Below are positions 1 through 60,610 of a stretch of DNA of 60,610 bases, piece by piece. The position numbers were made by a program, and so were the translations under genes. Source of the DNA: Escherichia phage Pondi; sequence record OP136151.1. The stretch is one strand, 5' to 3'. Position 1 is the first letter of the stretch; each line of letters begins with the position of its first letter. The notes beneath the pieces are model-generated. The model was not told where the DNA came from. It ran no database searches and worked only from the letters and a program-made list of their open reading frames with translations.

Positions 1-77
1 GCGCCGGACGTTGGTCCTGTGATAACGTCACCCGGTAGCAGACCTGTAACATCGTCCGTCATGTTGAGGCTGTACAC
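1..77. repeat. 77-bp terminal direct repeat, exact copy of 60534..60610 (circular or terminally redundant genome closed by the assembly)
   Basis: First 77 nt of window are identical to the last 77 nt; a minus-strand reading frame is continuous across the junction. Confidence 0.9.
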
Positions 78-257
78 CACAGTCTCGCTCGGTGCTGGCT
101 GACCGTCGAAACGTTCGTAACCAGCCTCAAGCGCATAGCCGCCATCCGTCTCAGGGGAGAAGTTTGTGGCGGCAGTCAGCGTACCGGGCTGGCGGCTGAG
201 ATAAGGAGTGGCCGTGTCGAGGCCACCTTGCAATGCAAAGCGATCATAATTAGCCAT
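1..257 (-). CDS. Large virion/tail structural protein, N-terminal 85 codons; gene continues through the junction into 58520..60610 (about 756 aa in total)
   Basis: ATG at 257-255 (MANYDRFALQGGLDTATPYLS...); frame stays open to position 1 and is in phase with ORF 58520..60610 through the 77-bp overlap. Confidence 0.7.
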   Translation of the reverse strand, partial: MANYDRFALQGGLDTATPYLSRQPGTLTAATNFSPETDGGYALEAGYERFDGQPAPSETVVYSLNMTDDVTGLLPGDVITGPTSG

Positions 258-260
258 GAT

Positions 261-923
261 TTAGCTCGCTGAAATAGAGAAGAAGTTACCGGACGACTGA
301 TTGGTTGGGAAACCGTCAGGACGTTGGTCAGCTTCAAGCAGGCGCAGGTATTTGTCGTATTCGGCCTGAGACTTAGCTGCCAGTTCCGCCGCGTCGTCGT
401 ACATTGCATACAGCCACAGCGCGTAGGCCACGATTGTGTTGCAGAAGCGCGCGGGTACCAGCGGAGTGTCGGAGTCGTTTACCAACTCTACGGACTCACG
501 GTACCAGGAAAATTGAAAGTTGAATTGCTTGTCAGGGCGCGGGTACATCTGGATGGACGAGTCCGGCATGATGACAAACTGAGTCGGGTATCCCTGTTCC
601 AGCATGGTGCTGTACGGGCTGAAGTTGTGAAATAGTTCCGGGTAGACCAGGTGGTTGTCAAACATGAGACGAGCCTGATCCCAGCGATAATGACCGAGTG
701 GTGGCACGATATGCGTTTCCCCGGTATCGACGGTACCTTCCAGCATACCGCCCCACAGGAAGCGCCAGTCACCCCACAGGTTTTCAATATAAGTGGTGGC
801 GTCCTTCACATACTGCACAATGCGCGCAGCGTCGCCGGACACCACAGCTACCGACTGGATATTGCCGGAATACCCTGCGTCACGGGCAACTCGTTGAGAC
901 ATTCCTAACAGGGTATTCGACAT
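261..923 (-). CDS. Virion structural protein, 220 aa (possible head-tail adaptor or tail protein)
   Basis: ORF in late operon directly upstream of the large tail protein gene; AAGGAG Shine-Dalgarno 6 nt before ATG at 923; function from position only. Confidence 0.5.
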   Translation of the reverse strand: MSNTLLGMSQRVARDAGYSGNIQSVAVVSGDAARIVQYVKDATTYIENLWGDWRFLWGGMLEGTVDTGETHIVPPLGHYRWDQARLMFDNHLVYPELFHNFSPYSTMLEQGYPTQFVIMPDSSIQMYPRPDKQFNFQFSWYRESVELVNDSDTPLVPARFCNTIVAYALWLYAMYDDAAELAAKSQAEYDKYLRLLEADQRPDGFPTNQSSGNFFSISAS

Positions 924-926
924 ATC

Positions 927-1223
927 TTACTCCTTAGTTGGCAGGCCCGGAGGCAGTTGCACTTTTGCTTTCGCTTTCGGCTTCACGGCGGCCACGGGTT
1001 CTTCAACTACCACTGGCACTTCCGGTTCCGGTTCCTTCACAGGGATTACTGGCGCTTCAGGTTCCTTCACAGGAGTAGGATTCAGATCAACATATTCACC
1101 TTTCGGGTCGAAGTAGTGACCGTTCTGATAGAAGGCCAGTTTCACTGCGCCAGTCTGTTGACCACGAATGACACCATACGGTTTGGTTTTATCGAGTTTA
1201 ATAGCCACGTTTCTTTTCTCCAT
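927..1223 (-). CDS. Hypothetical late protein, 98 aa, Pro/Glu/Val-rich C-terminus
   Basis: Internal ATG of ORF 927..1403 (MEKRNVAIKLDK...); overlaps upstream gene by 26 nt; weak RBS. Confidence 0.4.
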   Translation of the reverse strand: MEKRNVAIKLDKTKPYGVIRGQQTGAVKLAFYQNGHYFDPKGEYVDLNPTPVKEPEAPVIPVKEPEPEVPVVVEEPVAAVKPKAKAKVQLPPGLPTKE

Positions 1224-1503
1224 AGCCTTTGTACACAGCCTGCTGATCGTACATCGGTTTGACCGTCGTACCGCAGTCGTCGTGCGGACGGAACGATTCC
1301 AGACCTTTATGCTGCAAATAACCGTCACGAATATTGAAGTTCTCAATATTTGGATGGTCATCTTCAGCGCCGCGAGTACCGTCTGAAGGTGGTAAATAAT
1401 CACCCATGCGACCGTAATCCATTTGGCTGTTCATGGCGTCAACGTCAAACTCTGTACGCTGGCCCCACGAAATCGAATCGTCCTGATTGTATGATGGTTT
1501 CAT
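1198..1503 (-). CDS. Hypothetical late protein, 101 aa
   Basis: Internal ATG of ORF 1198..1557 preceded by GGAGG; protein MKPSYNQDDSISWGQ... Confidence 0.5.
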   Translation of the reverse strand: MKPSYNQDDSISWGQRTEFDVDAMNSQMDYGRMGDYLPPSDGTRGAEDDHPNIENFNIRDGYLQHKGLESFRPHDDCGTTVKPMYDQQAVYKGYGEKKRGY

Positions 1504-1586
1504 AATCACTTCCTCCAGATAGGTCTTCCAATGATACATAATAAAAAGGGGTCGCACAAGGCGACCCCAGTTTGGGATGGTGGCTA

Positions 1587-1988
1587 TTAGTAGCGGCCAA
1601 CGGTGAGTTGCAGACTTGCCAGTACCGCGTCACCGGAGTAGGTCAGCACAAACACCTGCGGGGTGTTGGCTTTGTTGGAAACGCCCATGTGATAACCTTC
1701 TTCAGTCAACACCAGTTTACCCTTCAGTGGGCCGCCAGGTGTAGACGTGCTGTCAACAGTGAACACACCGTAACGGTTAGCGGTAGTACCGTCACCGATA
1801 GCGATGGTACCTGTACCGGAAGTGTAGATGCCGGACAGACCGAGAACTACAGCACCTTCAACCACACGGCTGGCGTCGTGAGACAGTTCAGCGATGGCCG
1901 ATGCAGGCAGAGTGATCGCAGGACTGGATGCGAAGTTCTGTGCACTGTAGTTGTAGTTGGCTAACAGCGGTTTATCGTAAGAGTACAT
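1587..1988 (-). CDS. Virion protein, 133 aa, Gly/Thr/Ser-rich (possible decoration or connector protein)
   Basis: ORF with GGAGG RBS located two genes downstream of the capsid gene. Confidence 0.5.
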   Translation of the reverse strand: MYSYDKPLLANYNYSAQNFASSPAITLPASAIAELSHDASRVVEGAVVLGLSGIYTSGTGTIAIGDGTTANRYGVFTVDSTSTPGGPLKGKLVLTEEGYHMGVSNKANTPQVFVLTYSGDAVLASLQLTVGRY

Positions 1989-2002
1989 TTAGCGAGCCTC
2001 CA

Positions 2003-2203
2003 TTACTGTACGAGTTTGAAGCCGCCACCGACGTCTTCGTTACGCTGACCCGCAGAGAAGCGAGCCTGTTCAGTTACCGGGTATTCTTCCGGTTTGAACT
2101 TTTCCAGACTGGACAGGCCGCATTTTGCGTCGCCAGTGTCTTTTGCGTGTACGCCAGTCGCGCTGTCGTTGATCGGCATACCGTACGCTTTGTTCTGAGC
2201 CAT
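2003..2203 (-). CDS. Hypothetical small late protein, 66 aa
   Basis: ORF immediately downstream of capsid gene; GAAGGAG RBS. Confidence 0.5.
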   Translation of the reverse strand: MAQNKAYGMPINDSATGVHAKDTGDAKCGLSSLEKFKPEEYPVTEQARFSAGQRNEDVGGGFKLVQ

Positions 2204-2221
2204 GTTACTTCTCCTTCAATT

Positions 2222-2237
2222 TGGGGGCCGAAGCCCC
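2222..2237 (-). promoter_or_regulatory. GC-rich stem-loop with UUCG tetraloop (GGGGGC-UUCG-GCCCCC on the transcript) just downstream of the capsid gene
   Basis: Perfect 6-bp GC stem with UUCG loop between capsid stop (2247) and next RBS; no U-tract, so likely an RNA stabiliser or processing site rather than a strict terminator. Confidence 0.5.
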
Positions 2238-2246
2238 CGATTAAAC

Positions 2247-3218
2247 TTAGGACGCTGAGTCCCAACGGATGATGCGGTTCTGAAGTGCCTGCGGATCGTC
2301 AGCCTGAGACTGGTTGTGAACGATACCGAAACCACCCATGTAGTACCACGCAACACCTTTGGAACGACCGTAGTCGGTAGGCAGTTTACCACGAATCTGT
2401 TCAGGATCGGTAACTGCTTCAGTTACGGTATCGCCACCGAAGAAGAACGCTTCGTCAGACTTACCATTGGTCCAGCCTTTGGACGGAATGTTGGTCTGCT
2501 CAACAAAGCGGCAACCTTCGTATTTGCCGATTTCGCCCAGGCGAATGTTACGCCAGCCGCTTTCAACGTACTTAGACAGTTCTTCAATCTCGTTACGAAT
2601 CGGACGGAAAGTCGTCGGACGCGCCAGAGCGAAGTAGTCGTCACCGTCGTAGCCCGGAATGTTACGCTCTTTCATCTCGTCGATGATAGCTTTAACGTGG
2701 TCCAGAGACAGTGCAGCGTCGTTCACAGTCGCAGTATGGTCACCAGCGGCGGCCACAGCTTCGATGTTCACCTGAGTAGCGGAGGTGCCGCTAACCGGGG
2801 AAGCTACCAGACGAGTCTGGTTGAACTGGCTGTACGCTTCGTAGTCGAGGGTCTTAGCACAGTCGTCTTTCAGAGCGGACTGGATAATGTTCTCAACCGG
2901 AACTTTGGACAGGTTGTCCAGTTTTTTGGTGTACGGTACGGAGTTACCGAACTCGTCGATCTGCAAGGAACCCTGGCGGATTTCGAAGTTGGTTTCTGGC
3001 AGAGCCTGACCTTCTTTCAGACGACCGCCCTGGGTACGTACGTTGGTGAAGATGTCCCAATGGAAAATATCACCGCGACCGTAAGTGAACGCTTCTTTCG
3101 CCGAGCAGAACTGGCGGAAACGCATCATCGGCTGTACTTCTTTACGCAGATACTGACTCAGTTGGTCTGAGTACATGAACCCGCCGAGACGCTCAACGCC
3201 CCACAATTGACCTGCCAT
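2247..3218 (-). CDS. Major capsid protein, 323 aa
   Basis: Position directly after the acidic coiled-coil scaffold gene; AAGGAG RBS; followed by stable hairpin; size typical of HK97-fold capsid proteins; no database check. Confidence 0.7.
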   Translation of the reverse strand: MAGQLWGVERLGGFMYSDQLSQYLRKEVQPMMRFRQFCSAKEAFTYGRGDIFHWDIFTNVRTQGGRLKEGQALPETNFEIRQGSLQIDEFGNSVPYTKKLDNLSKVPVENIIQSALKDDCAKTLDYEAYSQFNQTRLVASPVSGTSATQVNIEAVAAAGDHTATVNDAALSLDHVKAIIDEMKERNIPGYDGDDYFALARPTTFRPIRNEIEELSKYVESGWRNIRLGEIGKYEGCRFVEQTNIPSKGWTNGKSDEAFFFGGDTVTEAVTDPEQIRGKLPTDYGRSKGVAWYYMGGFGIVHNQSQADDPQALQNRIIRWDSAS

Positions 3219-3240
3219 AGTGTTACTCTCCTTTCAACGA

Positions 3241-4521
3241 TTAACGTTTAATTGCTGGGGCGGTTCTGCCCTGCGTCAGACCTGAGAAGGCTGCCAACTT
3301 AGCGTCCATTGAAGACGGGCTGCGGCCACCATCCGGTACTGCTGCTTTTTTCGGCGCTTCGCTTTCACGTTGCGCACCGCTACCCAGCACGGTTTGACCT
3401 ACCTGACTCTTACGAGCTTCAACTGCTGCTGCGCGCGAGTTAACCTGCTGCGTTGTGGTAACCTGTTGACCAGTATAACCTAAAGCCGCTGCCAGTTCAC
3501 GAGCTTCGTTACGTGCCATAGTTGCTGCGCGCACCATGATGTCCAGAGGACGGATGTTGTTATCGCGAGCATTACTTTCACGTACCAGTTGCTGAGCGTA
3601 CTGCGCTGCTTTAGCACTGAGTGCCGGGTTACCGACCACATCTGCATATTGCGGATCAGACTCGTAAGCCTGTGCGTCAACTTGCAGGGAGTGATCCCAT
3701 GCTTTACGGTTTTGCTCTACGATTACTTGCTGAACAACCTGAGTGGTATCAACCTGTGGGATGGCCTGTTGGCGTCCTTTTGCCAGGGTATCTACTAGCT
3801 CGTCCAGTGCGCTATCGTCGCCTTCGTTATAAAGGCGTTCAAAACCTTGTCGCAATTTCGCTTTCAGATCAGGGTCAGCGTCCGTACTGGATGGCTGTTG
3901 AGTCTGTTGCGAGGCCAGTCGTAATTGTTCAAGTTCAGCACGTTCGCGTTCTAAACGCTGGCGTTCTTCTGCGGCCTGGCGCAACCGCTCGTCACCTGCT
4001 TCCAGCTTTTGGGCTGCCGCGATAACGCGTGAAGCATCGACTACTTGAACTTTGCCATTTACCAGAAGTTCAACTTTCTGGTTACCGTTGGCGTCGGTGA
4101 AGAAGCGAGGGGCATTGTTATCCACTTGCGGCGCGGCTTCCTGCTGCACCTGAGCTTCCTGCTCTACCTCTGTTCCTTCTTCCTGTACCTGATTGTCCTG
4201 ACTTTCTTCATCGTTGTCAAGACCGTAAAGGTCGAAACCTTCATCTGCACCTTCAGCTAAGTGCTGACGGCGACGTTCGGCGATGCTGGCGAGGAAGTCT
4301 TCGGAATCTTTTGCCTGAGCGGCTTGGTTTTCGCGCACCCGATCAGAGATACTTTTCTTGGCCTCGGCGGTTTGCTCTACGGTATCCAGATTATCACTGG
4401 CTCCATCGATTTCTTGCTGGGTAAATCCAGCGGCCACGGCTGCTGCGTTGTTCTCTTCAATGACCTGTTGCGGCGATACTTCGGTTGCTTTACGGGTCAT
4501 GGCGTCCTGTTGGATAGTCAT
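3241..4521 (-). CDS. Scaffolding protein, 426 aa
   Basis: Highly acidic, Gln/Glu/Ala-rich with predicted coiled coils (ERQRLERERAELEQLRL); lies between portal and capsid genes; ATGA overlap with upstream gene. Confidence 0.65.
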   Translation of the reverse strand: MTIQQDAMTRKATEVSPQQVIEENNAAAVAAGFTQQEIDGASDNLDTVEQTAEAKKSISDRVRENQAAQAKDSEDFLASIAERRRQHLAEGADEGFDLYGLDNDEESQDNQVQEEGTEVEQEAQVQQEAAPQVDNNAPRFFTDANGNQKVELLVNGKVQVVDASRVIAAAQKLEAGDERLRQAAEERQRLERERAELEQLRLASQQTQQPSSTDADPDLKAKLRQGFERLYNEGDDSALDELVDTLAKGRQQAIPQVDTTQVVQQVIVEQNRKAWDHSLQVDAQAYESDPQYADVVGNPALSAKAAQYAQQLVRESNARDNNIRPLDIMVRAATMARNEARELAAALGYTGQQVTTTQQVNSRAAAVEARKSQVGQTVLGSGAQRESEAPKKAAVPDGGRSPSSMDAKLAAFSGLTQGRTAPAIKR

Positions 4522-4916
4522 GCTGTTTCTCCGTCTTCATCTAACTGCTGGTTGTCTAACTGCTGCTTGCTGCTTTCCTTTTCTTCAATCTGAGCGCCAA
4601 TCGTTTCATAGATTTTGATGACGGTCAGGCAGGCAATCTGTGCCTCTACAATTTCGCTAGTGTTCGCCGGGTTAGCTGTGAGTAATTTCTCAAAGCCTGC
4701 GGTGAACTGCTCGCGAAGGCGCACATCGAAATCTGCGCCCAGCAACGTTTGTGTAAAAAAGTGAGCGGCATCCTCACCGATGTTTATCTTACTGTAAAGA
4801 TAATTGACGGGCAAGGTATCCGACATCAAATCGTCTTGCCGCATGTCAATGTGGTTAATGTTGCGCGCATATATTACATGCGCGCTCGTAGGTGATTTAC
4901 TTGACGTTTGACTCAT
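4518..4916 (-). CDS. Hypothetical protein, 132 aa
   Basis: ORF between portal and scaffold; overlaps portal 3' end by 20 nt. Confidence 0.45.
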   Translation of the reverse strand: MSQTSSKSPTSAHVIYARNINHIDMRQDDLMSDTLPVNYLYSKINIGEDAAHFFTQTLLGADFDVRLREQFTAGFEKLLTANPANTSEIVEAQIACLTVIKIYETIGAQIEEKESSKQQLDNQQLDEDGETA

Positions 4917-7278
4917 TGATGACTTCCTGCTGAGTAGGCGTTACCTGCTGGCCGATTTGCTGGGCCTGCTGCATCGCCGTCTGCTGCAATGAGCTTCCGT
5001 GCTGGAGTGCGGTGGTCTGACGCTTGGTCTTGTCCTGTGCTTCGGCAATCCGTAGCCGGGTTTCATTATCCAGCATAGACAGCAACATATCAAGCTGACC
5101 GCGCTTACCTTCCAGTTCTGCGTCGAGTGCCATCTGAATCAGCTTCAGTTCGCGGTCGGCGGCCAGTTGGTTGGCTTGCTTGGTTAACTCCAGTTCAGCT
5201 TTAATCTGCGCTTCCTGCACGCGACCTTTCGCTTCTTCCTGCGCAGCCTGTACCAGCGGATCAACTGGTGGTTCTGACGGAGGCGGCTCCTGGAAGTTCT
5301 TAGCCAGATTCGGGAAGAATTTACTACCGTCGCCCTGACCGAGTGTTGAGAAGATAGCGCTACCGACGGCTTTGCTATCCATGTTGTCAGCCATGCCCGG
5401 TAACTGCATTACCGTCGTAACACCGTACATCAACGTGTTTACACGCTGTACCGGGTCAGTTGCGCCAATACCGGTATCGACTTTCATCTCAAGCTGTTTG
5501 GTCATGAGATCGTCGGTCAGGTCTTCCACGTTGAGGCGCGGGAAGTATGCCGAGTTGTCGACGGCGATGTGCATGATCGTCTCGTCGTTCTCATAATACT
5601 GAACGGTGAGCATGAACAGTTCCAGCACCGGGCGCACGAAGGTGAACACGAAGGTACGGATGTCGAAGTCGTTCACTTTGGTAGCGGCGTTGCTGAGCAA
5701 CTTCATACCACCGACAGTCTCGTTCATCTCGCGGTTGTTGGCTACAGCCTGGCCGCTGAAGGTACCCTGTGCTTCGTTCATCTCCATAGTCAGGCGCTGA
5801 GTTTCCTCATAGCTGCTACTGGTGACGTCGTTCACTTCCTGCGGGATCAGGTCGCCAGCCGGGTCGCTGGTGAAGATTACACCGCCCGGAGTGGAGCGTG
5901 TCAGAGCGGCCAGGTCGATAGATGCACCGCGACGCGCCAGGTAACGCTTGTTCAGTACGAGCTTAACGTTGTCTACGCGCTGGTTGCTGATTTCGTTCAC
6001 TGCGCGCTGCAACTCGCTACCGATATGGGCTTTGGAGTCCGGCACGTTGTTGTGAGATTCAATCATGCAGGTACCGTAGACGAACGGCAGGCGACCGTGG
6101 TGATAGCGGTCCTTCAGTTCTACAGGCTGCTCTAACAGGAACTGAGTACCCATCATGTGATAGGTGTACCAAAGACCATCACGGCGGACGAACACTTCGT
6201 TAACCATTACAGATTCGTAGCGGACATCGGCGTTGTCGTTGTTGATTGGGTCCGGCTTACCTTCACCGCGCTTAGCCTGCTGCGTTGCGTCGTCTTCCAT
6301 CGCCCAGCGGCACGTCAGGATTTCACCTTCGGAAAGCAGGTTCCACTCGCCGCGTTCCATACGCACCATGACGTCATCAACGGACATCATTTTTCTGTGT
6401 ACGAAATACTTGCCAGTACCGACAACATCGTTCGCTTTCGCGGTTGGGTCGAAGATAAAGTTTTCCGGCAGGATCAGGTCGATGTACGGCTCGTCGTGAA
6501 TAACGTTTTCAGTCTTAGTCGTCTCCAGACCAATCAGGTTACCCGCTTCATCGAATACCGGAGTGTCGGTCGTAGTGGTTGTGGTTTCGCGCCACCAGAA
6601 AACTTTAGCGATTGCTGGCCCATTGATGAATGAGTCCTGCGCAGCACCGATACAAATCGGGTACCAGATTTTATCCAGACGAAGGTTTACGATTTCCTTC
6701 AGCACTGCCGCCGCTTTATCCGCATCCTGGTCGGTTACGTTGCGTGGCGAAATGTGCATGTAGTCATCGTTCAGGAAAAGCGCGGTTGCGATGTCTGCTT
6801 CCCAGCTACGGGAGGCCATGCGGGTTAACGGGCGGAAAACTTTCGAGCGGTTGCGGAACGCTTCGCTGTAATATTTGCTGCCCGGTTCGTGGCGACCTTT
6901 GAACAGGTAAGTGTCGTTGATGTGCTGCGTCTGGTAGCCCTGACGATAGAAGGTGCGCCCGGTGTCATAGCAACGACGACCGAGGTCAATCCACTGGGTT
7001 TCAGACATGCCAGCAACGCCGGAGTCGTCCGGTTGATTATAGGTTTGTTCTTCGGCTTGCAGGACATCGCCTTCCTTCTCGAACTGGGAGAATGAGTCCA
7101 TCTCACCGAAGGATGCCTGATTGATGTCCAGTTCAGCGCCGGGGATAATCTGGTTAGCGCGGTACGGGTCGTCGTTTACCTGCGTAATCCCGCGAGCACC
7201 ACCGCCGCCGTAAGGCGACTGGGTGTCCGGCGCGCGACCAACGAGGGAATCACTGATCCCTTTTTGTGCGTTCGGCAT
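4897..7278 (-). CDS. Portal protein (putative), 793 aa
   Basis: Large ORF between terminase and scaffold/capsid genes, the canonical portal position; GAGGA RBS. Confidence 0.6.
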   Translation of the reverse strand: MPNAQKGISDSLVGRAPDTQSPYGGGGARGITQVNDDPYRANQIIPGAELDINQASFGEMDSFSQFEKEGDVLQAEEQTYNQPDDSGVAGMSETQWIDLGRRCYDTGRTFYRQGYQTQHINDTYLFKGRHEPGSKYYSEAFRNRSKVFRPLTRMASRSWEADIATALFLNDDYMHISPRNVTDQDADKAAAVLKEIVNLRLDKIWYPICIGAAQDSFINGPAIAKVFWWRETTTTTTDTPVFDEAGNLIGLETTKTENVIHDEPYIDLILPENFIFDPTAKANDVVGTGKYFVHRKMMSVDDVMVRMERGEWNLLSEGEILTCRWAMEDDATQQAKRGEGKPDPINNDNADVRYESVMVNEVFVRRDGLWYTYHMMGTQFLLEQPVELKDRYHHGRLPFVYGTCMIESHNNVPDSKAHIGSELQRAVNEISNQRVDNVKLVLNKRYLARRGASIDLAALTRSTPGGVIFTSDPAGDLIPQEVNDVTSSSYEETQRLTMEMNEAQGTFSGQAVANNREMNETVGGMKLLSNAATKVNDFDIRTFVFTFVRPVLELFMLTVQYYENDETIMHIAVDNSAYFPRLNVEDLTDDLMTKQLEMKVDTGIGATDPVQRVNTLMYGVTTVMQLPGMADNMDSKAVGSAIFSTLGQGDGSKFFPNLAKNFQEPPPSEPPVDPLVQAAQEEAKGRVQEAQIKAELELTKQANQLAADRELKLIQMALDAELEGKRGQLDMLLSMLDNETRLRIAEAQDKTKRQTTALQHGSSLQQTAMQQAQQIGQQVTPTQQEVINESNVK

Positions 7279-7288
7279 CTCTTAATCC

Positions 7289-7657: not shown

Positions 7658-7832
7658 TATCAATATCCTTAGTCCAACGATAGTCGTGACCCGGTAGCGT
7701 CGGCATCTCGGTCTTCACCTTTCCGTTGTCGAAGACGTACACCGCTTCGGGCGTAGTCAGTCGCTTCGGGTCCAGGCGATTCACGATTTCAGTGAAGCTG
7801 CGGGTTGTGTATGAAACTTGACGTCCTGCCAT
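7644..7832 (-). CDS. Hypothetical protein, 62 aa
   Basis: Small ORF with GGAGGT RBS 6 nt upstream of ATG. Confidence 0.45.
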   Translation of the reverse strand: MAGRQVSYTTRSFTEIVNRLDPKRLTTPEAVYVFDNGKVKTEMPTLPGHDYRWTKDIDNDNS

Positions 7833-7864
7833 AGTACACCTCCGTTAATCAGTGCATGATAACA

Positions 7865-10073: not shown

Positions 10074-11705
10074 TTAAGCGACATCCGGTTCATAGCTGTC
10101 GTTGTAGCCACCCTCGATAACCGGGAAGGCGAACGTAAGGGCCAGCGCGTCACCAATATCAGGCGAGCGACCGATACGCTTCTTGATTTCGTCCTTCTTC
10201 TCAAGGCGCAGGCGGTCACCATCAAAGCGGTAGGTAGGCGCACAGAGGTCACGGCCCCAGTCATGACCCTGCGGAAGTGAGGCAGCGTTACGCATCCAGT
10301 CACGAATGCGGACCCACATTTCAGCGCGCTTGTTGGCGTACTTGTGTTCCTCGGTAGCCTTCTCTGCAAAGTGTACCATCGTCACATTGTGAGCGGCACC
10401 ACGGGCAGACAGGAGATCATGAACGCCAGTACCGTAACCGCCAGTGCCATCAATGAACGTATGGTTGACGCCGTACAGTTCCCGCAGTACGTGGAGGCGG
10501 TTGGCAATCTCGCCATTGGTCGCCTTGCTCAACTTCTCACAATGCAGGACCACACGACCACGACGCACCACGAAGGCCGTCGAGTCATCGCCCATTGCAG
10601 CAACGTCTACGCCCATAACGGTGGCACCGACAGGATCGAGCTTACCAGATTTCGCCCAGTACAACGCAGAGGCCACCATGTCACCAGTAATAAGCAGGTT
10701 GTCGCCTGTAGCCTGGAAAGCTAGCTCAGCGGTAGCGGGGTAATCTCGGTCAAAGCGTCGGGAGTCGCCATCGAGCAACTTGATTTGCTTACGACGCCAG
10801 AACATCTGGTCACGGTCCAGTCCGTAGAGACGGGCGTACTTTGCTTCCTCGTCGCTGTACACGAAGGAATCAGGAGCCTCGCTGCGGTACTCGTCTTGCC
10901 AGAACCACGGCACGAAGACACGGATAAAGCCGGAGCCGTCCGCATCCGTCAGGCTGTCATTGACCGCAGGTGATGCAAGCATCCACTGGGTATAGAAATA
11001 TCCTGATGCACCGTTGGCGGTTGACTCTAAGTAAACCTCGGTGCCGTCAGCGTTAGGGATGGCCTGCATGATACCTGATGCAATCTCGGCACCGTCATCA
11101 AAGAATCCGACCTCTGACCCGTGGAAGAAGGAAGCAGTAAGGCCACGTCCGGCAGACGTAGAGCCAGCGGTTGCTACTGCGTACTTGCTATCTAACTCAG
11201 GAAAGCTGAGCATCATGCCGTTATCGTGGCCCTTAACAGGCTGCAAGTCTTCCGGGCAATGCTGATGGTAACGCTTGGTCATGTCGAACAGGGCGGAGGA
11301 TGATTTAGCCTGATGCGCCATAATTAGCGAGTGATAAGCCTCGGTGTGAATCGTCTTCCAGTATGCGCGAGCCTGGACCGTGGTACTCATCCCCTGCTGG
11401 CGACCTTTAACGACCACAATACGCACCTTACCCGTGTGGTGCATCTGCCATGCTGCGATTGCATTCATGTATTGCTGAGCTTTGTTAAGCCGGATGGGGG
11501 CGATCGTGTTGTCCTTGCCACGGATAACAAGGCATCGCTCAGCGAAGAATTGGAACTCGGTACGACACTTGAGGAAAAAGGCGTCCATCTCTGAGTCATC
11601 TTCAAAGGTAAAGTTAACGCTATTTGCCTTCTTCTCTAAGTAATCGACCAGCATCCAGACATCGTCATCGGTGTTGGTGAACTCCCATACGTCACGTTTA
11701 GACAT
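10074..11705 (-). CDS. Terminase large subunit, 543 aa
   Basis: Deviant Walker A-like KGRQQGMST near N-terminus, size and domain order typical of large terminases; TAATG overlap with upstream small-terminase candidate. Confidence 0.8.
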   Translation of the reverse strand: MSKRDVWEFTNTDDDVWMLVDYLEKKANSVNFTFEDDSEMDAFFLKCRTEFQFFAERCLVIRGKDNTIAPIRLNKAQQYMNAIAAWQMHHTGKVRIVVVKGRQQGMSTTVQARAYWKTIHTEAYHSLIMAHQAKSSSALFDMTKRYHQHCPEDLQPVKGHDNGMMLSFPELDSKYAVATAGSTSAGRGLTASFFHGSEVGFFDDGAEIASGIMQAIPNADGTEVYLESTANGASGYFYTQWMLASPAVNDSLTDADGSGFIRVFVPWFWQDEYRSEAPDSFVYSDEEAKYARLYGLDRDQMFWRRKQIKLLDGDSRRFDRDYPATAELAFQATGDNLLITGDMVASALYWAKSGKLDPVGATVMGVDVAAMGDDSTAFVVRRGRVVLHCEKLSKATNGEIANRLHVLRELYGVNHTFIDGTGGYGTGVHDLLSARGAAHNVTMVHFAEKATEEHKYANKRAEMWVRIRDWMRNAASLPQGHDWGRDLCAPTYRFDGDRLRLEKKDEIKKRIGRSPDIGDALALTFAFPVIEGGYNDSYEPDVA

Positions 11706-12451
11706 TATTCGCCCCCGTTGCTCTTAAAGTTTGCTTGCAGTCGACGTAAGCGGTCGCGCTGTGTTTCTGCTTCGCCTTGTCCTTGCTCCACGTTATCCCA
11801 GCCTTTGAGGCGTGAGAGTAGCGCACTTGCAGCAATGACCGACTTCGGATCGTATTTACATTGGCCCTCAACTGGTAGACCCGTCAGGTTGTCGAACTCC
11901 TGTTTCAGTTGTAAGCCACGGTCGATGACCTGCCATAGCACGGCTTCGAGATATGCTTTGTTCCTTACAGGTGCGAATAAGCTACGGCCCTTCATGCTCG
12001 CCAGGTAGTCGGCAACGTGAGATGACCGCAATAACTCGGCGGCCTTCTTGTCAGCCAGTTGTTTATTGAATATCTCAAAGCTGGCGGCGGCGGCTGCGGT
12101 GGCGTTCATTCCCCTGAGTACGTTGTTGGCAAAGGATAGCTCGGCGTTATTGAGGTATAGCGCCTTGTTCCTGGCGTCAACAGGCACGGCCTCGGATGAC
12201 TGGAGCGGACTGACCGCCAGATCTTCAGGTTCCAGTGTACTGGTTGCCAGGTGCTGGACTGCGACGGCATGGTTAACACCGCGCTTTAGTCCCCGGTTGA
12301 GTGGTTCCGGCTTGATGATATTCCCGGTTCCGATATGTACGGCGGTCTTAAACTGATAATCATCGAGGCCATACTTTGCAGCCAGTAACGCGTCCGTCAC
12401 TTCGCCATCGAGATAATCAAGAATAAAACTCGCGCGGGTTTCTGGTGTCAT
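11705..12451 (-). CDS. Terminase small subunit (putative), 248 aa
   Basis: First gene of late block, immediately upstream of and translationally coupled to the large terminase; call is positional. Confidence 0.45.
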   Translation of the reverse strand: MTPETRASFILDYLDGEVTDALLAAKYGLDDYQFKTAVHIGTGNIIKPEPLNRGLKRGVNHAVAVQHLATSTLEPEDLAVSPLQSSEAVPVDARNKALYLNNAELSFANNVLRGMNATAAAAASFEIFNKQLADKKAAELLRSSHVADYLASMKGRSLFAPVRNKAYLEAVLWQVIDRGLQLKQEFDNLTGLPVEGQCKYDPKSVIAASALLSRLKGWDNVEQGQGEAETQRDRLRRLQANFKSNGGE

Positions 12452-12550
12452 GGCTTAGTCCCTGCGTAGTTTGTGATCACCTGCATAGCTTAACACTGTG
12501 ATGCAAGTCACACAAATATCGCGCGTCTGCTTAAAAAGGCCAGGTGTCTT

Positions 12551-12836
12551 ACCCTGCTCAACTTTTAGTTTTCGCGTAGCGCTGCGTAGATTGGTTACTT
12601 TTTAACCTGCGAAGGTAGGAATCTAAAAGCTAACGACGAGAACTAAAAGCGCGCGAAGATTTCTCGAAGCCTTCTTGAAGAGGCCACCCGCTAGATATTG
12701 CTTGCAGTCACCCTCAATAATTGAGAAACTAATTCTGTGCTTTTTGACCTTTGAATTATTAACAAGCTTTTAGTTAGTTATTATTTACTTCGCGGGTGAA
12801 AAGTAGTTAGTTAAGTATATAAATCTAACTAAAAGC
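12551..12836. repeat. Iteron-like 9-10 bp motif AACTAAAAGC / GCTTTTAGTT in five copies within the long noncoding region
   Basis: Copies read at about 12551, 12621, 12641, 12766 and 12827 in both orientations in a 451-bp gene-free region. Confidence 0.4.
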
Positions 12837-12878
12837 TTGTAAGTTTAAAGAAGCTCAGAAAGCACAGAATTAGTTTCT
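12724..12878. repeat. Composite imperfect palindrome: 20-bp perfect outer inverted repeat (12724..12743 / 12859..12878) and 15-bp perfect inner inverted repeat (12762..12776 / 12826..12840)
   Basis: Arms verified base by base; ends 10 nt upstream of the RBS of the first early gene; candidate origin, operator or terminus-associated structure. Confidence 0.6.
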
Positions 12879-12902
12879 AAATAACCAAAAGGAGTCTACA
12901 AG

Positions 12903-50744: not shown

Positions 50745-50785
50745 TAGAAATGCTCCCCCTTGTTGATAGGGGAAGCATAGCATAT

Positions 50786-54163: not shown

Positions 54164-55282
54164 TTATTTCAGTTTGTCGGACCAGGTGGTAACACTACCA
54201 TAAAGTGACTGCAAATACTTCAGGTCGTTGTTACGGTTGCTCAGTTCCTGTGAGATCAACTTGTTCTTCTGGTCCGTGGTTAAGTCCGGGTTAGAAGAGA
54301 TGTTGTTGATGTTCACTGAACTGTTGTTTAACAGGTTGTTCACCGAGTCCGTATAACTACCACGGGCGTTGGCCTGAATAGACGTTGCGAACTGTGCGGC
54401 GTCCTGCTTCAGCTTGGCGTTCTCCAGACCGAGGTTGGCGTTGAACTCAAACTGTTGTTGCTTCAGGGAATCTTTAAACTGCGACGCCTGATTCTTAATC
54501 TGCTCGGCAGCCTGCGCTTCTGTCACTTTACCGGAGCGGATTTGCTCGGCCAGGCTTTGGCTGAACTGTGACGCCTGGTTGTTGATCTGCTGCTGGGCTT
54601 GCTGCTCGCTGACCTTACCGGAACGAATCTGTTCTTCTAAAGACTTTGCGAACTGTGACGCCTGGTTGGTGATTTGCTGTTGTCCTTGCCCTTCTTGCAC
54701 CAGGGCGGCACGTTCGGCTTCTGTCAATTGACGATCCGTCTGACCTTCCTTTACCTGTGTGGCGCGTTCAGCTTCCGTCTGGCTGCGATTGTACTGCGCT
54801 TGACCTTGCGACTGGGTAGCCATCTGCGACGCCATGTTTTGTGCAGCCGCATCCGTGGCCGCCTGACCCATGCCTACAGCCATAGACGAGTTACCCATAC
54901 CTCGACGTGCTGCCTGACGCTGTGCAGTAGCTGCCGCCTGCTGCATCATCGGACTGTTCTGCGCCGTCAACTGATTGTACGCCTGATCCACAGTCTGGTA
55001 ATTGTTGGCAGCGTTGGCGTTATTGTTGTTTGCTACGGCACCATTGGTCACCTGCTGCGGTGCTGGCTGTGACGCAACGGGTACCGCCTGCTGCTGCTGC
55101 TGCTGAGCCTGTGCCGCCTGCGCCATTGACGAGGCCACATTCGACTGCTGTGACGCGTCGTTCTGAATGTTGCTCGCACCCAGCGCACCGGACGTGGACG
55201 AAGGGGTGCTCGTAGCGAGCACCTGATCCGGCTGGTTAGTAGTGGTGCTATCCGACTGTGCCGGGTTAGTTAATCCTGACAT
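54164..55282 (-). CDS. Gln-rich virion protein with internal repeats, about 372 aa
   Basis: Start at ATG 55282 (TAATG overlap with fibre stop); repeats QASQF(A/S)(K/Q)SL(E/A)EQIRSGKV x2-3; poly-Q tract. Confidence 0.5.
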   Translation of the reverse strand: MSGLTNPAQSDSTTTNQPDQVLATSTPSSTSGALGASNIQNDASQQSNVASSMAQAAQAQQQQQQAVPVASQPAPQQVTNGAVANNNNANAANNYQTVDQAYNQLTAQNSPMMQQAAATAQRQAARRGMGNSSMAVGMGQAATDAAAQNMASQMATQSQGQAQYNRSQTEAERATQVKEGQTDRQLTEAERAALVQEGQGQQQITNQASQFAKSLEEQIRSGKVSEQQAQQQINNQASQFSQSLAEQIRSGKVTEAQAAEQIKNQASQFKDSLKQQQFEFNANLGLENAKLKQDAAQFATSIQANARGSYTDSVNNLLNNSSVNINNISSNPDLTTDQKNKLISQELSNRNNDLKYLQSLYGSVTTWSDKLK

Positions 55283-56898
55283 TATGCGCTCCTGTACCAT
55301 GCAACTAAGATTAGAGACGATTCTACCACGCCAAAGGACGTACCGGAACCAGTGTTGCTTAACGACAATGTGGCACTATGTCCGTGACTGCCGTAAGCCA
55401 CTGTGTGGCTGTGCGCTCCCAAAGCTACAGTGTGCGTGTGACTGCCGACCGGGAAGGTGTGAGTGTGCGCACCTAAAGCTACAGTGTGCGTGTGCGCACC
55501 GAGGTCGAGTGTATGCGTGTGGTTATCAGCACTTGATGTGGTGACGTTACCCGCTGACGTAGAGTCGTTTGCTGCTGCGCGTAATCTCGCTCCCGGTCCG
55601 TCGACTGTATACGCAGTGAACGTGTGATTGTGACCGCCAGCACCACTGGTGGTGATAGCACTAGGATCGTAACCTGATGTGGTTTTGGTACCGTAGTCGA
55701 AGCTGGATGTGGTTTTCGCTGCGATGGTAGTGTTATCCAGAGTGTCGGTACCCAGGTCAACAGATGCCAGAGTGTCGGTACCCAGGTCGGTGCTGCTCAC
55801 GGTACCCATTGTCACTGAATGGTTGTGCGAGGCCAGGTTGTTTGTCGAAAGCGTCACACTGTCAGCGCCTGTCGTTCCGTTAACGTCACTGCCCGTGGCG
55901 TTGGACATACGTAATGATGTCGACGCTGGTAAGCGTACCCATGTGGTACCCGGATACTTAACGTTAGGATCGATGTCAGCGTCAAAGAACTCGGTACAGC
56001 CGGGGAACAGTTCCAGTTCAAGAATAGCCGCCTGCACGCGGTCGAGAAAGTTCGGCGCGTTAACGATGTCGATAGCTTCCTGCGCGTAAGTTGCCGCGTC
56101 CGCCGCACTACCTGCCGCTGCCGTTGCGGAGTTTGCCGCTGCCGTTGCGCTGGCGTCGGAAGCCGTAGCAGAGTTCGCCGCTGCCGTCGCAGAGTTCGCC
56201 GCTGCCGTGGCGCTGCTGGCGGCGTTACCCGCAGATGTGTTTGCCGCAGACGCAGAGTTTGCCGCTGCCGTGGCGCTGCCGGACGCTGCCGTGGCGCTGC
56301 CGGACGCTGCCGTGGCGCTACCTGCTGCTGAATCTTTGGACGCGGTGATAGCGTTTGCTGACGCTAGAGCATTCGCTGCTGACGCCGCTGCTACGTTACG
56401 CTCACTCAGTGCCGTAGCTTCACTGGCCGCCGCGAGCGCTGCCTTAGCCTGGGCAATTGAAAGCTGCTCAAAGGCGGTAGTGTAATAGCGTGCACCCATC
56501 TCCAGAATCTGGAAACGCTCACCGTTATAGACGAATGTGTAGACACCTTCGGCAAACAGGTCACCTGCTGCCACCGCACCAAACACTGACAGCGTGACAT
56601 TTTTAGCGGCCAGGTCGTTTACGCTCAGGGTAGACGGTCCGGTAGACGCATCGTTGATTCGGAGCGCAACGTTACTCCCGGCAACATAGTCGGTATCAAA
56701 GTCATCCAGCGTGGCGATGTGATCGTTCCCGGTACCCGTATCCGTTGAGTAGTTCAGGGTACCGGAAGTTAACTGGGAAGCAGGCGGGACCACCGAGAAA
56801 GCCTCGGTGATCTTTTCCATCTCACGGTTGTAGTCGAACGGGTCGACAATCGTACCCGCTTCAGCCGGATTAATAAAGTTGTAATATTCGTTACTCAT
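55282..56898 (-). CDS. Tail fibre protein 2, 538 aa, Ala/Ser-rich repeats and C-terminal HxH repeats
   Basis: Paralogue of 56895..58520; NHTHTLDLGAHTHTVALGAHTHTFPVGSHTHTVALGAHSHTV recalls metal-binding HxH motifs of fibre tips; ATGA coupling. Confidence 0.65.
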   Translation of the reverse strand: MSNEYYNFINPAEAGTIVDPFDYNREMEKITEAFSVVPPASQLTSGTLNYSTDTGTGNDHIATLDDFDTDYVAGSNVALRINDASTGPSTLSVNDLAAKNVTLSVFGAVAAGDLFAEGVYTFVYNGERFQILEMGARYYTTAFEQLSIAQAKAALAAASEATALSERNVAAASAANALASANAITASKDSAAGSATAASGSATAASGSATAAANSASAANTSAGNAASSATAAANSATAAANSATASDASATAAANSATAAAGSAADAATYAQEAIDIVNAPNFLDRVQAAILELELFPGCTEFFDADIDPNVKYPGTTWVRLPASTSLRMSNATGSDVNGTTGADSVTLSTNNLASHNHSVTMGTVSSTDLGTDTLASVDLGTDTLDNTTIAAKTTSSFDYGTKTTSGYDPSAITTSGAGGHNHTFTAYTVDGPGARLRAAANDSTSAGNVTTSSADNHTHTLDLGAHTHTVALGAHTHTFPVGSHTHTVALGAHSHTVAYGSHGHSATLSLSNTGSGTSFGVVESSLILVAWYRSA

Positions 56899-58520
56899 GC
56901 TGTACGTCTCCAGCCGACGAGGATAGTAGATTTTGCCACGATGCTGAAAGCCTGATCAATACCCGTGTTACCGATGCTGGCTGTCACTGTATGGTTGTGA
57001 CTTCCCACCGCTACCGTGTGAGTGTGGCTTCCCACATCTACCGTGTGACTGTGTGTACCCAGCGACACAGTGTGTGTATGTGCACCGATACCAACAGTGT
57101 GGTTGTGTGACGGTAGGTCGAACGTATGCGTGTGGTTACCAACGCTGGATGTGGCGACGTTACCCGCAGACGATGAGTCGTTTGCTGCTGATTTAAGTTT
57201 TGCCGTAGTACCGGTACCGTTAATAGCGGGTACGGTATGACTGTGACTGCCTGCGGCACTTGATGTGGCGTTGGCGTAATCATAGCTGGATGACGTAAGG
57301 TCACCGTAGTCAAAGCTGGATGATGTCAGGTTACCGTAGTCTTTGCTGCTGGATGTTTTGGTACCGTAGTCAAAGCTGGTTGACGTCTTGTTACCTAAAT
57401 CCGTATTGGCAATTGTCGCGGTACCAGTATGGTTGTGCGATGGTAGGTTGGCTGTTACCAGTGTCACAGTGTCAGAGCCTACCGTGGTCATGACGTCGCT
57501 TGCTGTGGCGTTGGATGTGCGGATGCTTTGCGATACCGGGAGACGTACCCAGGTGGTGCCGGGGTATTTGGTGTTAAGGTTAATGTTCAGCGCATAGAAT
57601 TTGACGACACCCACGTCCAGCGTACTGGTTAACAGGACACCCATTACCGCCGCCTTAAACGACGCGTCACCGATAGCGTTGAGCGCAGTCTGAGCGCTGG
57701 CCGCCGCTGCCGTTGCTGAGTTTGCCGCTGCCGTTGCTGAGTTTGCCGCTGCCGTGGCACGAGTGTTAGCCGTACTGGCGCTACCTGCCGCTGCCGTGGC
57801 GCTACCTGCTGCTGACGTGGCGCTGCCGGACGCTGCCGTGGCGCTGCTGGCGGCGTTACCCGCAGATGTGTTTGCCGCAGACGCAGAGTTTGCTGCATTG
57901 GTTGCAGACGTCGATGCGGCGCTGGCAGAGTTTGCTGCGGTTGTCACACCCGAAGCTGCGGCGCTGGCGCTGCTGGCTGCATTACTCGCGCTTGTCGCTG
58001 CGGCGCTGGCGCTATTGGCTGCGTTGGTGGCGGATGTGCCAGCGTTTGTGGCGGCGGTAGTCGCTTGGGTAGCTGCGGTCTGCGATGCGTTTACCGCACC
58101 GGAAACAGTGTTGACTACCTGGAAACGGGTACCGTCATAACGGATGGAATAGATGGTGCCTGCACGCAGATCGTTAGCCACCAGTGGACCGAGCGCTGTA
58201 GTCAGGTTGACGAGCGGCTTAGGGCCGAGTCCGTTAATGTTGAGCGTGGCCTCCCCGGTGTTATTAACGTGAATATTGAGCAACACCTGCATACCCGTGA
58301 TATAACCGAACCTGCCGTCGAAGCGCGGTAGAGTTACGGTGTACGCCGTAGATGTACCCTGCGAACGGGCATAGTTTCCGGTGTTGGAGGCCAGTGCATC
58401 TGGCGACGGCAGGATGTCGAAAGCACGGGCAATCGCGGAGAAGTCGCCGTTGTATTTTGTTGACTCCAGACGGTCGCCCGGTTCCACCGGGTCCATGTAG
58501 TTGAAATAAGTGTTAGCCAT
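56895..58520 (-). CDS. Tail fibre protein 1, 541 aa, Ala/Ser-rich repeats and C-terminal HxH repeats
   Basis: Ala/Ser/Thr/Asn-rich repeats; GAHTHTVSLGTHSHTVDVGSHTHTVAVGSHNHTV; TAATG coupling with upstream large tail protein. Confidence 0.65.
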   Translation of the reverse strand: MANTYFNYMDPVEPGDRLESTKYNGDFSAIARAFDILPSPDALASNTGNYARSQGTSTAYTVTLPRFDGRFGYITGMQVLLNIHVNNTGEATLNINGLGPKPLVNLTTALGPLVANDLRAGTIYSIRYDGTRFQVVNTVSGAVNASQTAATQATTAATNAGTSATNAANSASAAATSASNAASSASAAASGVTTAANSASAASTSATNAANSASAANTSAGNAASSATAASGSATSAAGSATAAAGSASTANTRATAAANSATAAANSATAAAASAQTALNAIGDASFKAAVMGVLLTSTLDVGVVKFYALNINLNTKYPGTTWVRLPVSQSIRTSNATASDVMTTVGSDTVTLVTANLPSHNHTGTATIANTDLGNKTSTSFDYGTKTSSSKDYGNLTSSSFDYGDLTSSSYDYANATSSAAGSHSHTVPAINGTGTTAKLKSAANDSSSAGNVATSSVGNHTHTFDLPSHNHTVGIGAHTHTVSLGTHSHTVDVGSHTHTVAVGSHNHTVTASIGNTGIDQAFSIVAKSTILVGWRRTA

Positions 58521-60610
58521 TATCGTACCTTTCTACGTGGTGACCATTCGAATGATAAATCCTCTGCGGTAAACTGCGGATGGATTCGTGACCGGATGTA
58601 CAGCATCGTGCTGACGTCAAAACCTAAGCCGTCAATGTCAGATGAGATTGTCGGGTTTTCCGTGGCATCCCAGTAGACCTGCCCCCACAGCGACAAATCC
58701 CAGCGACCGCCGCCGGACACTAACAGGCCAGATTCGACCGATGCCTGCGGAGTGGATGCGCCTTTATTGTACGAGAAAACGACACGCGCGTTAAGGTAAG
58801 ATTGTGCGCGGATACTCATGTCCATACGGCGGTACCGCTTACGGGTATCCGGGTCACCCTGGTTGGCGAAGGAAGTACGGAATACTGATGACCGTTCACC
58901 GCCATCGTTACTGGCCCCTACGGAATCCTGATAGACGTATCCGGTATCCGAGATGAAGAAGATACGACCGTACGGGTTGACCGCAGCACGCACCGTCAGA
59001 CCGCCGTAGTCAAACATCGAGAAGCCGATCACATTCCCCTGATTAGTGGAAAGGGCGATGTTGACGTCTCCCTCAAAGTGGAGTCGGTACTGCCCTCGAC
59101 TCTTCCTTGCCATTGCGCAAGTGCAGCGAGAATAGTTAGGTACGATGGTGTCTCTGATGACGTCGCTGATAGTACCGTCGCTAAAGTTACCAAATTGGTC
59201 AGTCCGGTCGATACTAATGATGCCTGCCTGGGCGAGTACGAGTGATTGAGACTGGTACACCCCAGTAAATTTAGAGATACCAGTATGCTGAGTAATAACC
59301 TCTTTTTGCCAGTCATCAATGCTGCTCCCCTCAAGACTTTGGATGTCTTTATCTGTACAAATAATAAGCGATTTTGGTGCCGGAATCAGTGAAGAGATTT
59401 CCGAACCTACGCCGACCGCCAGTGCGCCGAGGCCACCGCTCCAGTCCATCGGGCTACCCAGCACGCTGTGTTGCAGGCTACCTTTCGGGAACGCGAAGAA
59501 CAGATGGTCTTTGTATTCCACTACATCGAACGGGGTATCCGTGTCAGCCTGCGTCGGGATAAAGGAGAAGCCATGCGTCTCGTCGTAAACGAAGCCGTTG
59601 CTCACACCGTTCACGCCGTACATTGCGAACGTGTTCATACCGCCGAAAAAGTTGTGGTTGGTGAAGCGGTACAGACCGTTAGCCGGGAGAACGTTAGGCG
59701 TGGCCGCCGCCGTCACTTCACCGATGTCAACGTTATACGTATCGTTGTGAATCACTTCGCCAGCCTGGAACGTTCCGGTCACGTCAGTGAACGTCAGGTA
59801 ACCGGACGAGTGGTCCTGAGCGATGTAACCTACCCAGCCGACGGTTGCCGTAGCGCCGGACGTCACACCACGGATTGTATCGCCCGGACCGAGTTCGTCG
59901 TCAGTGGTGGTAGACGGGCGCGTATCCCATCCCATCGTAAAGCCCAGGTCGACTTCCTGCCAGCCTGTCACCGTACTGCGATACATTTTAGTGCTGTTGG
60001 CGTCAGCGTCACGGAACGAGTACACGACACCTTCCAGATCCCATACACCGCGCACACTGTTGATACCCGGCACCACGCCAATCTTAGCGCGACGTAATTC
60101 ACTCAGGTAGAAGAAGACACCTGCGGGAGTATCCGGGGAGGCCAGCATCGGTTCCACTTCATACTCACCGTTGACCTTATACTCGGTACCGTCACCCTTC
60201 ACCATAGTCTCGCCAACCTGCACCGCACCAGCCAGCGTGGACACGTACACCCACATGTCAGCGTTGGTAACTTTGATGATGTTCACTTCCACTGTAGCGG
60301 CTGAGGATAAGCCCAGTAACGCATTGCCGACTTCCAGCGTGTTAGCCGCCAGCGGTGACATCAACAGAATCGTAGTGCGTGTAGCTGTCGGACTGTAGCT
60401 GCGTTGGTCAATAGCTTCCGTCGAGAGGTACTCGATAACGTTAGCGCCGATATTCTCACCCGGCATGAATGTGACACCATTAGTGACATCACACCAGATT
60501 TCTTTACCGAAAACCGCGCCGACAGTTGCTACCGCGCCGGACGTTGGTCCTGTGATAACGTCACCCGGTAGCAGACCTGTAACATCGTCCGTCATGTTGA
60601 GGCTGTACAC
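58520..60610 (-). CDS. Large virion/tail structural protein, C-terminal 696 codons of the junction-spanning gene (5' end is 1..257)
   Basis: Track ORF runs to window edge and begins with an internal GTG; in frame with 257..1 across the 77-bp overlap; lies between adaptor-like gene and the fibres. Confidence 0.65.
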   Translation of the reverse strand: MYSLNMTDDVTGLLPGDVITGPTSGAVATVGAVFGKEIWCDVTNGVTFMPGENIGANVIEYLSTEAIDQRSYSPTATRTTILLMSPLAANTLEVGNALLGLSSAATVEVNIIKVTNADMWVYVSTLAGAVQVGETMVKGDGTEYKVNGEYEVEPMLASPDTPAGVFFYLSELRRAKIGVVPGINSVRGVWDLEGVVYSFRDADANSTKMYRSTVTGWQEVDLGFTMGWDTRPSTTTDDELGPGDTIRGVTSGATATVGWVGYIAQDHSSGYLTFTDVTGTFQAGEVIHNDTYNVDIGEVTAAATPNVLPANGLYRFTNHNFFGGMNTFAMYGVNGVSNGFVYDETHGFSFIPTQADTDTPFDVVEYKDHLFFAFPKGSLQHSVLGSPMDWSGGLGALAVGVGSEISSLIPAPKSLIICTDKDIQSLEGSSIDDWQKEVITQHTGISKFTGVYQSQSLVLAQAGIISIDRTDQFGNFSDGTISDVIRDTIVPNYSRCTCAMARKSRGQYRLHFEGDVNIALSTNQGNVIGFSMFDYGGLTVRAAVNPYGRIFFISDTGYVYQDSVGASNDGGERSSVFRTSFANQGDPDTRKRYRRMDMSIRAQSYLNARVVFSYNKGASTPQASVESGLLVSGGGRWDLSLWGQVYWDATENPTISSDIDGLGFDVSTMLYIRSRIHPQFTAEDLSFEWSPRRKVR
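60534..60610. repeat. 77-bp terminal direct repeat, exact copy of 1..77
   Basis: Identical to the first 77 nt of the window. Confidence 0.9.

Follow-up and report, generated by a model that had tools for sequence, protein, structure and literature searches.

The identical ends of the Pondi record

The deposited genome of Escherichia phage Pondi begins and ends with the same 77 bases, which raises the question of whether these identical ends belong to the packaged DNA or to the way in which the sequence was put together. The window analysed here is the whole record of 60,610 nt; it is the complete, already published Pondi genome (OP136151, genus Xuquatrovirus), and as such ordinary and already known. 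The twelve window proteins that were looked up each match exactly a protein named Pondi_000xx, among them Pondi_00001 and Pondi_00086. A prefix/suffix comparison confirmed that positions 1-77 equal 60534-60610 (77/77 identity) and that no longer prefix of the window equals a suffix; by chance alone, 77 nt would agree with a probability of about 4^-77. The overlap is the sole long exact repeat within the window (repeat family D8), and removal of the 77 redundant bases brings the unique sequence down to 60,533 bp, the length that had been given in a preliminary description of the sequence. The same description had regarded the window as an entire phage genome that closes on itself, and we find support for this in its collinearity with the 61.6-kb genome of phage PTXU04, which extends along the full length and is continuous over the junction. 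The 77-bp ends, on the other hand, were left behind by the assembly software and have no biological meaning. Taken together, the observations are in all probability best explained by a complete Pondi genome, a 77-bp overlap produced by the assembler, and fixed ends of the virion DNA near the gene for the terminase small subunit (TerS), at 12687/12688. The features on which this reading is based are collected in Table 1.

Table 1. Features of the Pondi window that bear on its identical and its predicted physical ends
Feature	Position	Strand	Basis
Left overlap copy	1..77	.	Inside junction-gene coding sequence; exact identity to 60534-60610
Junction gene, N-terminal 85 codons, ATG at 257-255	1..257	-	Frame after circularising
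Head-to-tail adaptor, SU10 type, Pondi_00001 (UVD31642.1)	261..923	-	Pfam PF24175, E 2.9e-11; exact match
Major capsid protein	2247..3218	-	Sequence identical to PTXU04 capsid protein
Portal protein, SU10 type	4897..7278	-	Pfam PF23899, E 4e-33
Terminase large subunit (TerL), Pondi_00014	10074..11705	-	PHROG 2, tblastn, exact look-up; 97.8% identity to PTXU04 TerL
Putative terminase small subunit (TerS), Pondi_00015	11705..12451	-	Weak PHROG 51 match, position, BLASTP 86% to PTXU04_00001
Divergent intergenic region, late (-) vs early (+) genes	12452..12902	.	Contains predicted terminus
GTGGCCTCTTC, predicted Pondi terminus, break 12687/12688	12677..12687	-	Equals first 11 nt of PTXU04 record
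Junction gene, C-terminal 671 codons + stop	58520..60533	-	Homologue of PTXU04_00016
Junction gene as publicly annotated, Pondi_00086, UVD31727.1, 691 aa	58520..60595	-	Exact sequence look-up
Right overlap copy	60534..60610	.	Redundant; both copies align to a single continuous stretch of PTXU04 (12806-12882)

A structural gene is cut by the record

After circularising, a single minus-strand frame runs through the junction, complement(join(58520..60533, 1..257)), with 2,271 nt coding for 756 aa plus the stop codon; the 756-aa gene noted earlier at this position is thereby confirmed. The other members of the junction-gene cluster are all of this length (12/12 with 756 aa). As the ends of the record fall within this gene, Pondi_00086, the last gene of the deposited record, is annotated 65 aa short (691 vs 756), and the adaptor gene Pondi_00001 becomes both the first gene of the record and the first ORF of the window. 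Pfam and PDB searches with the junction gene product gave no match, and a PHROG family labelled 'amidase' was its sole family match. As it follows the gene for the SU10-type adaptor, we guess that it probably encodes the tail nozzle. The biological weight of these observations is small, but their practical value is clear: the public record holds 77 redundant bases and its last gene lacks 65 codons.

Origin of the 77-bp overlap

The reads for Pondi were NovaSeq PE150 and were assembled de novo (PMC9888219). For SPAdes assemblies of Salmonella phages, identical 77-bp contig ends have been reported as an artefact (PMC9409062), and these assemblies resemble that of Pondi both in their identical 77-bp ends and in the presence of genes that span the ends. 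There, the authors trimmed the extra copy before annotation, whereas it was kept in the Pondi record, at the cost of the 65 codons mentioned above. The two Pondi copies are exactly identical and lie at the extreme ends of the contig; their length corresponds to an assembler k value for PE150 reads; and the cut between them is arbitrary, falling inside the 756-aa gene at a place where PTXU04 is unbroken (12806-12882 of its sequence). The overlap probably originates from SPAdes with k = 77, an attribution that rests on the coincidence of lengths and on the read length, the assembler being unnamed in PMC9888219.

In terms of mechanism, a de Bruijn-graph assembler would find a circular path from the 150-bp paired reads and would write it out as a linear contig with an arbitrary start and with its largest k-mer (77 nt) repeated at both ends. 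Such an arbitrary cut, falling in the 756-aa structural gene, would account for the shortening of the public annotation to 691 aa. The circle itself may close as reads bridge the virion ends, which a short terminal repeat, the annealing of cohesive ends or the presence of replicative concatemers would each allow. The preliminary description had offered circular permutation, terminal redundancy and assembly as a circle side by side; of the three, assembly as a circle accounts for the 77 bp, as a k = 77 overlap.

Comparison with the type phage PTXU04

According to the ICTV genus criterion, members share a whole-genome nucleotide similarity of at least 70% with the type species. Pondi aligns to the type phage PTXU04 (Xuquatrovirus PTXU04, MK373772 / NC_048193) over a fraction of 0.94 at 90.6% identity, which corresponds to an overall similarity of ~85% and places it in the genus Xuquatrovirus, but in a species different from PTXU04 (species limit 95%). 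A similar value (83.8%) was obtained by Humolli et al., who treated Pondi as a Xuquatrovirus. Gene order is shared by the two phages throughout their genomes; the segments replaced in Pondi include positions 7898-8810 of the window (fibre) and 12598-13682 (first early genes). Like the phages of the T7, SP6, phiEco32 and N4 types, Pondi is a podovirus, with an N4-like capsid and an SU10-like portal and adaptor. As PTXU04 runs unbroken over the junction, the window is closed by a genuine adjacency rather than by a chimeric join. The two records differ in how they were opened: that of PTXU04 was linearised at experimentally supported ends, that of Pondi was cut arbitrarily inside a gene.

Predicted physical ends of Pondi DNA

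The PTXU04 contig was linearised where the reads stopped abruptly; by BAL-31 digestion the genome was not circularly permuted, and a 'predicted and degraded end' band was seen with BAL-31/BglI (PMC6563267). The validated PTXU04 ends map to 12687/12688 of the window, 12.7 kb from the overlap and upstream of the TerS gene. The 11-mer with which the PTXU04 record begins, GTGGCCTCTTC, is found upstream of TerS in Pondi as well as in PTXU04 and is invariant in five lineages, in which it precedes the TerS ATG by 226-245 nt, with diverged flanks (only 13/80 and 16/80 columns invariant among the five lineages).

The real ends of Pondi are therefore most likely situated about 12.7 kb from the overlap, adjoining the packaging genes, with their position transferred from PTXU04. 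Since TerL and TerS are 97.8% and 86% identical, respectively, to their PTXU04 counterparts, we infer that Pondi shares the packaging mode of this phage. Packaged Pondi DNA would then be linear with fixed, non-permuted ends, as judged from PTXU04, and these ends would lie ~236 nt upstream of TerS at 12687/12688, starting with GTGGCCTCTTC. The preliminary description had stated that the physical ends cannot be deduced from the sequence; this holds for the Pondi sequence by itself, but no longer once PTXU04 and four other lineages are compared, as the comparison predicts 12687/12688.

We regard it as evenly balanced whether GTGGCCTCTTC is the terminase cutting site that fixes the ends in all Xuquatroviruses, in which case it would either form the left edge of a short direct terminal repeat overlooked until now or belong to a new cohesive-end site. 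With the sister phage PTXU04 having fixed ends, a short repeat starting from the conserved 11-mer would fit the short-terminal-repeat pattern of podoviruses. To our knowledge, the packaging mode of Xuquatroviruses has never been described, and we know of no short direct terminal repeat demonstrated for any of them. Short terminal repeats are present in the genus Kuravirus. In Table S4 of Korf et al., no terminal repeat is listed for PTXU04, nor for a Kuravirus. Within the PTXU04 record itself, a comparison of the first with the last 3 kb gave no similarity beyond chance that could represent a terminal repeat. In independent assemblies (IMG/VR scan; ENA and Logan look-ups) contig ends did not accumulate at the predicted terminus, a result that we consider neutral: the longer contigs all pass through this position, and the shorter ones start at least 548-868 nt upstream of TerS, not ~236 nt. 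The predicted terminus at 12687/12688 provides a testable entry to DNA packaging in Xuquatroviruses.

Alternative explanations

Headful packaging, in which the virion DNA of Pondi would be permuted, terminally redundant and devoid of fixed ends, would yield a circular assembly as well, since permuted genomes always assemble as circles, and 77-bp ends were indeed observed on permuted genomes (PMC9409062). TerL gave no Pfam match, and its PDB matches were remote ones to the ATPase of T4 gp17 (E 3e-5, ~26% over the ATPase domain), a headful enzyme; its tblastn relatives are mixed, comprising Vibrio podoviruses, epsilon15/phiV10-like nuclease domains and T4-like ATPase domains. The closeness of the ATPase domain to gp17 and the matches to T4-like phages speak for headful packaging, but the likeness is too remote to be predictive of a packaging mode. 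BAL-31 and BglI treatment revealed defined ends and no permutation in PTXU04, with its nearly identical TerL, a result that also disfavours the circular permutation considered in the preliminary description (PMC6563267), and the end sequence forms a conserved island in five lineages. Headful packaging of Pondi is thus improbable.

Still less credible is that the virion DNA truly ends in the 77 bp as a direct terminal repeat, in which case the window would represent the complete physical molecule. A terminally redundant genome would be expected to show exact direct repeats at the two ends of its contig, and short terminal repeats (100-400 bp) are common in podoviruses. However, the repeat sits in a conserved gene of 756 aa, of which 12 other genomes have an intact copy, and a terminus within an essential structural gene would leave this gene split on the infecting DNA. 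A direct terminal repeat lies at the physical ends, whereas the validated ends of PTXU04 map 12.7 kb away from the overlap; and 77 is an assembler k-mer length, with the same 77-bp ends having been called a SPAdes artefact (PMC9409062). The overlap of Pondi thus falls outside the definition of a podovirus short direct terminal repeat, and the terminal redundancy suggested in the preliminary description does not apply to the 77 bp themselves. Automated genome-length and 'DTR = complete' calls on such records mirror the behaviour of the assembler and not the structure of the virion.

A mis-join between two distinct molecules, or a genome that has been rearranged, has nothing in its favour beyond the general possibility raised in the preliminary description and can be dismissed almost entirely, as a single 30-kb PTXU04 alignment passes continuously through the junction (which excludes the joining of two molecules), the rebuilt junction gene is of full length and clusters with its 756-aa homologues, the remaining adjacencies are likewise collinear with those of PTXU04, and both the window and independent contigs (L027-L040) bridge the ends of the PTXU04 record.

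The region around the predicted terminus

We are left with the assembler overlap at the contig ends and a predicted terminus in the intergenic region upstream of TerS. This region also contains an inverted repeat with 58-nt arms (12720-12777 / 12825-12882); its motif CTAACTAA has 2 matches genome-wide compared to 1.04 expected, an enrichment that is not significant. Adjoining TerS, a block of ~150 nt is conserved. Escherichia phage HelliStehle (Bas95, PQ850607), whose structural module is collinear with that of Pondi (TerL 80% identity), shares this non-coding block. Its record is uninformative with regard to the ends because it was declared circular and, by convention, opened at TerS. The terminal motif is partly kept in HelliStehle, in the form of GTGGGTCTTC.

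Overlap at the record ends and closure of the map

Bases 1-77 of the window recur without a mismatch as its last 77; no longer prefix equals a suffix, and this pair is the sole long exact repeat of the window (repeat family D8). A random origin of such an identity is effectively impossible. Removal of one copy leaves a unique sequence of 60,533 bp; both the overlap and this genome length, given in the preliminary description, thus hold. Against the 60,610 bp of the deposited contig, the Pondi paper gives a genome size printed as '6,1061 bp'.

The overlap is an assembler artefact. It lies inside a conserved structural gene, devoid of any genome-terminus feature, and 77 is the largest default k of SPAdes for 150-bp reads. 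For Pondi, a sewage podovirus (Sidi Mabrouk et al. 2023), a service company assembled NovaSeq PE150 reads de novo (PMC9888219); as the assembler is not named there, we infer the use of one with k = 77. Of the options proposed initially, assembly as a circle therefore gains from the k-mer length and the cut inside a gene, whereas terminal redundancy loses: as a biological terminal repeat the 77 bp fail, since the closest relative has its ends at a different place. As an assembler signature, such an overlap is well known and nothing new in kind.

This relative was found by megablast against phage records, which matched Escherichia phage PTXU04 (Xuquatrovirus, 61,600 bp), with HelliStehle/Bas95 as a more distant match. 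The window is reverse-complemented and rotated relative to PTXU04 and collinear with it throughout (aligned fraction 0.94, mean identity 90.6%, ~85% overall); the overall value agrees with the published 83.8% (Humolli et al. 2025). Exact protein look-ups identified the large and small terminase subunits (TerL, TerS), capsid, portal, fibre and helicase as Pondi_00014, _00015, _00006, _00009 and others, with Pondi_00001 as the first and Pondi_00086 as the last ORF of the window. The window is therefore the genome deposited for Pondi (OP136151); this published isolate belongs to a named genus, as a species other than PTXU04.

PTXU04 42995-12806 is matched by window 30450-60610, and PTXU04 12882-4977 by window 1-7897. 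In PTXU04 these alignments share exactly the 77 bases, so that PTXU04 is uninterrupted through the junction. In turn, both the window and independent contigs from ENA and Logan run across the point where the PTXU04 record ends meet. Judged from these comparisons, the circular closure of the Pondi map is real, as first described. With an independent assembly behind every adjacency, a mis-join of two different molecules is excluded by PTXU04 continuity, the bridging contigs and the 756-aa homologues of the junction gene.

On the circularised sequence one minus-strand frame spans the junction (ATG 257-255, stop 58520; 2,271 nt, 756 aa), in line with the gene reported initially. It is homologous to PTXU04_00016, all other members of its 90% cluster (12/12) have 756 aa, and an SU10-type adaptor gene (Pfam PF24175) lies directly upstream. 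The annotated start is an internal ATG, the true gene crossing the record ends; the shortened annotation (Table) is the visible cost of the artefact, and a correction of the public Pondi record is one useful output of this analysis.

Features of the Pondi window
Feature	Position	Strand	Remarks
Junction gene, public annotation (Pondi_00086 / UVD31727.1)	58520-60595	minus	691 aa vs true 756 aa
Inverted repeat, 58-nt arms	12720-12777 / 12825-12882		arms 81% complementary, 47 nt apart
Paralogous adjacent tail-fibre genes	55282-56898 and 56895-58520	minus	538 and 541 aa
2,205-aa ORF	44166-50783	minus	homologue of PTXU04 gp25
Three small tandem paralogous early genes	14372-14929		spacing 274-280 nt; repeat families D10 and D14; = PTXU04_00085 to _00087

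Predicted physical ends

PTXU04 is not circularly permuted, as shown by time-limited BAL-31 followed by BglI digestion (Korf et al. 2019, PMC6563267). The same authors linearised contigs where most reads stopped abruptly, and their Figure S4 legend refers to a band marked 'predicted and degraded end'. The PTXU04 record ends are therefore experimentally supported. They map to the divergent intergenic region 12452-12902, between the TerS gene and the first early gene, where PTXU04 position 1 (GTGGCCTCTTC...) falls on the minus strand at window 12687-12677.

The alignment of the terminus region comprised PTXU04, Pondi, HelliStehle and three more lineages taken from ENA and Logan assemblies. The 11-mer GTGGCCTCTTC is invariant in 5/5 Xuquatrovirus lineages (HelliStehle excluded), 226-245 nt upstream of the TerS ATG; in these lineages only 13/80 preceding and 16/80 following columns are invariant. 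HelliStehle, in contrast, carries GTGGGTCTTC in its place. The exact coincidence of this conservation island with the validated terminus gives good comparative support for a putative conserved terminase cutting site. Given the identity between the Pondi and PTXU04 terminases (TerL 97.8%, TerS 86%), Pondi very likely shares the fixed ends of PTXU04, a concrete and testable terminus prediction for a phage group with unstudied packaging.

As the Pondi assembly is smooth through 12687/12688, reads bridge the ends. A short direct repeat would be collapsed in assembly and should give this picture; cohesive ends or contaminating concatemers could also do so. Kuravirus relatives carry short terminal repeats, and the ~236 nt between motif and TerS would leave room for a repeat as long as is typical of podoviruses. 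Neither for PTXU04 nor for a Kuravirus is a terminal repeat listed by Korf et al. (PMC6563267). Contig ends in metagenome assemblies (ENA and Logan contigs) do not pile up at the predicted terminus. We consider a short terminal repeat and cohesive ends roughly equally likely for Pondi. Headful packaging, at odds with fixed ends, is very improbable. TerL typing does not point to one packaging mode: the similarity of its ATPase domain to T4 gp17 is remote, and its nuclease domain has counterparts in various podovirus enzymes.

Other elements of the window

A second copy of the 11-mer (window 43558-43568, plus strand; PTXU04 29881-29891, minus strand) is inverted relative to the first and lies inside a small PTXU04_00027-homologous gene near the transcription convergence point. 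The chance expectation is ~0.03 per genome; this copy may be a coincidence kept by coding constraint.

A non-coding block of ~150 nt (about 12452-12600), directly upstream of the TerS gene, shows almost no variation across six lineages, the distant HelliStehle among them. Within it lie the inverted copies TTTGTGTGAC / GTGATCACAAA; candidate roles of the block are late promoter, operator or terminase recognition site. AT-rich sequence preceding the first early gene holds the inverted repeat (Table). In PTXU04 an inverted repeat occupies the same place but differs in sequence; the motif CTAACTAA common to both shows no genome-wide enrichment (2 matches vs 1.04 expected).

PTXU04 gp25 is a putative polyvalent protein, essential by CRISPRi-ART (PMC11879866); PHROG matches of its 2,205-aa Pondi homologue are limited to the last ~550 residues and belong to families of unknown function. 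In the tail-fibre pair, repeats with periods of 21 nt and 30 nt form arrays, and a 201-nt segment is common to both genes (73% identity). The main segments lacking similarity to PTXU04 are 7898-8810 (part of the fibre genes) and 12598-13682 (first early genes). In independent Pondi-like ENA/Logan contigs (L027-L034), TerL is followed by a 512-aa endonuclease-like gene, and a 757-aa Tail_spike_N-domain protein replaces the Pondi fibre genes, which suggests that receptor-binding proteins are exchanged as modules.
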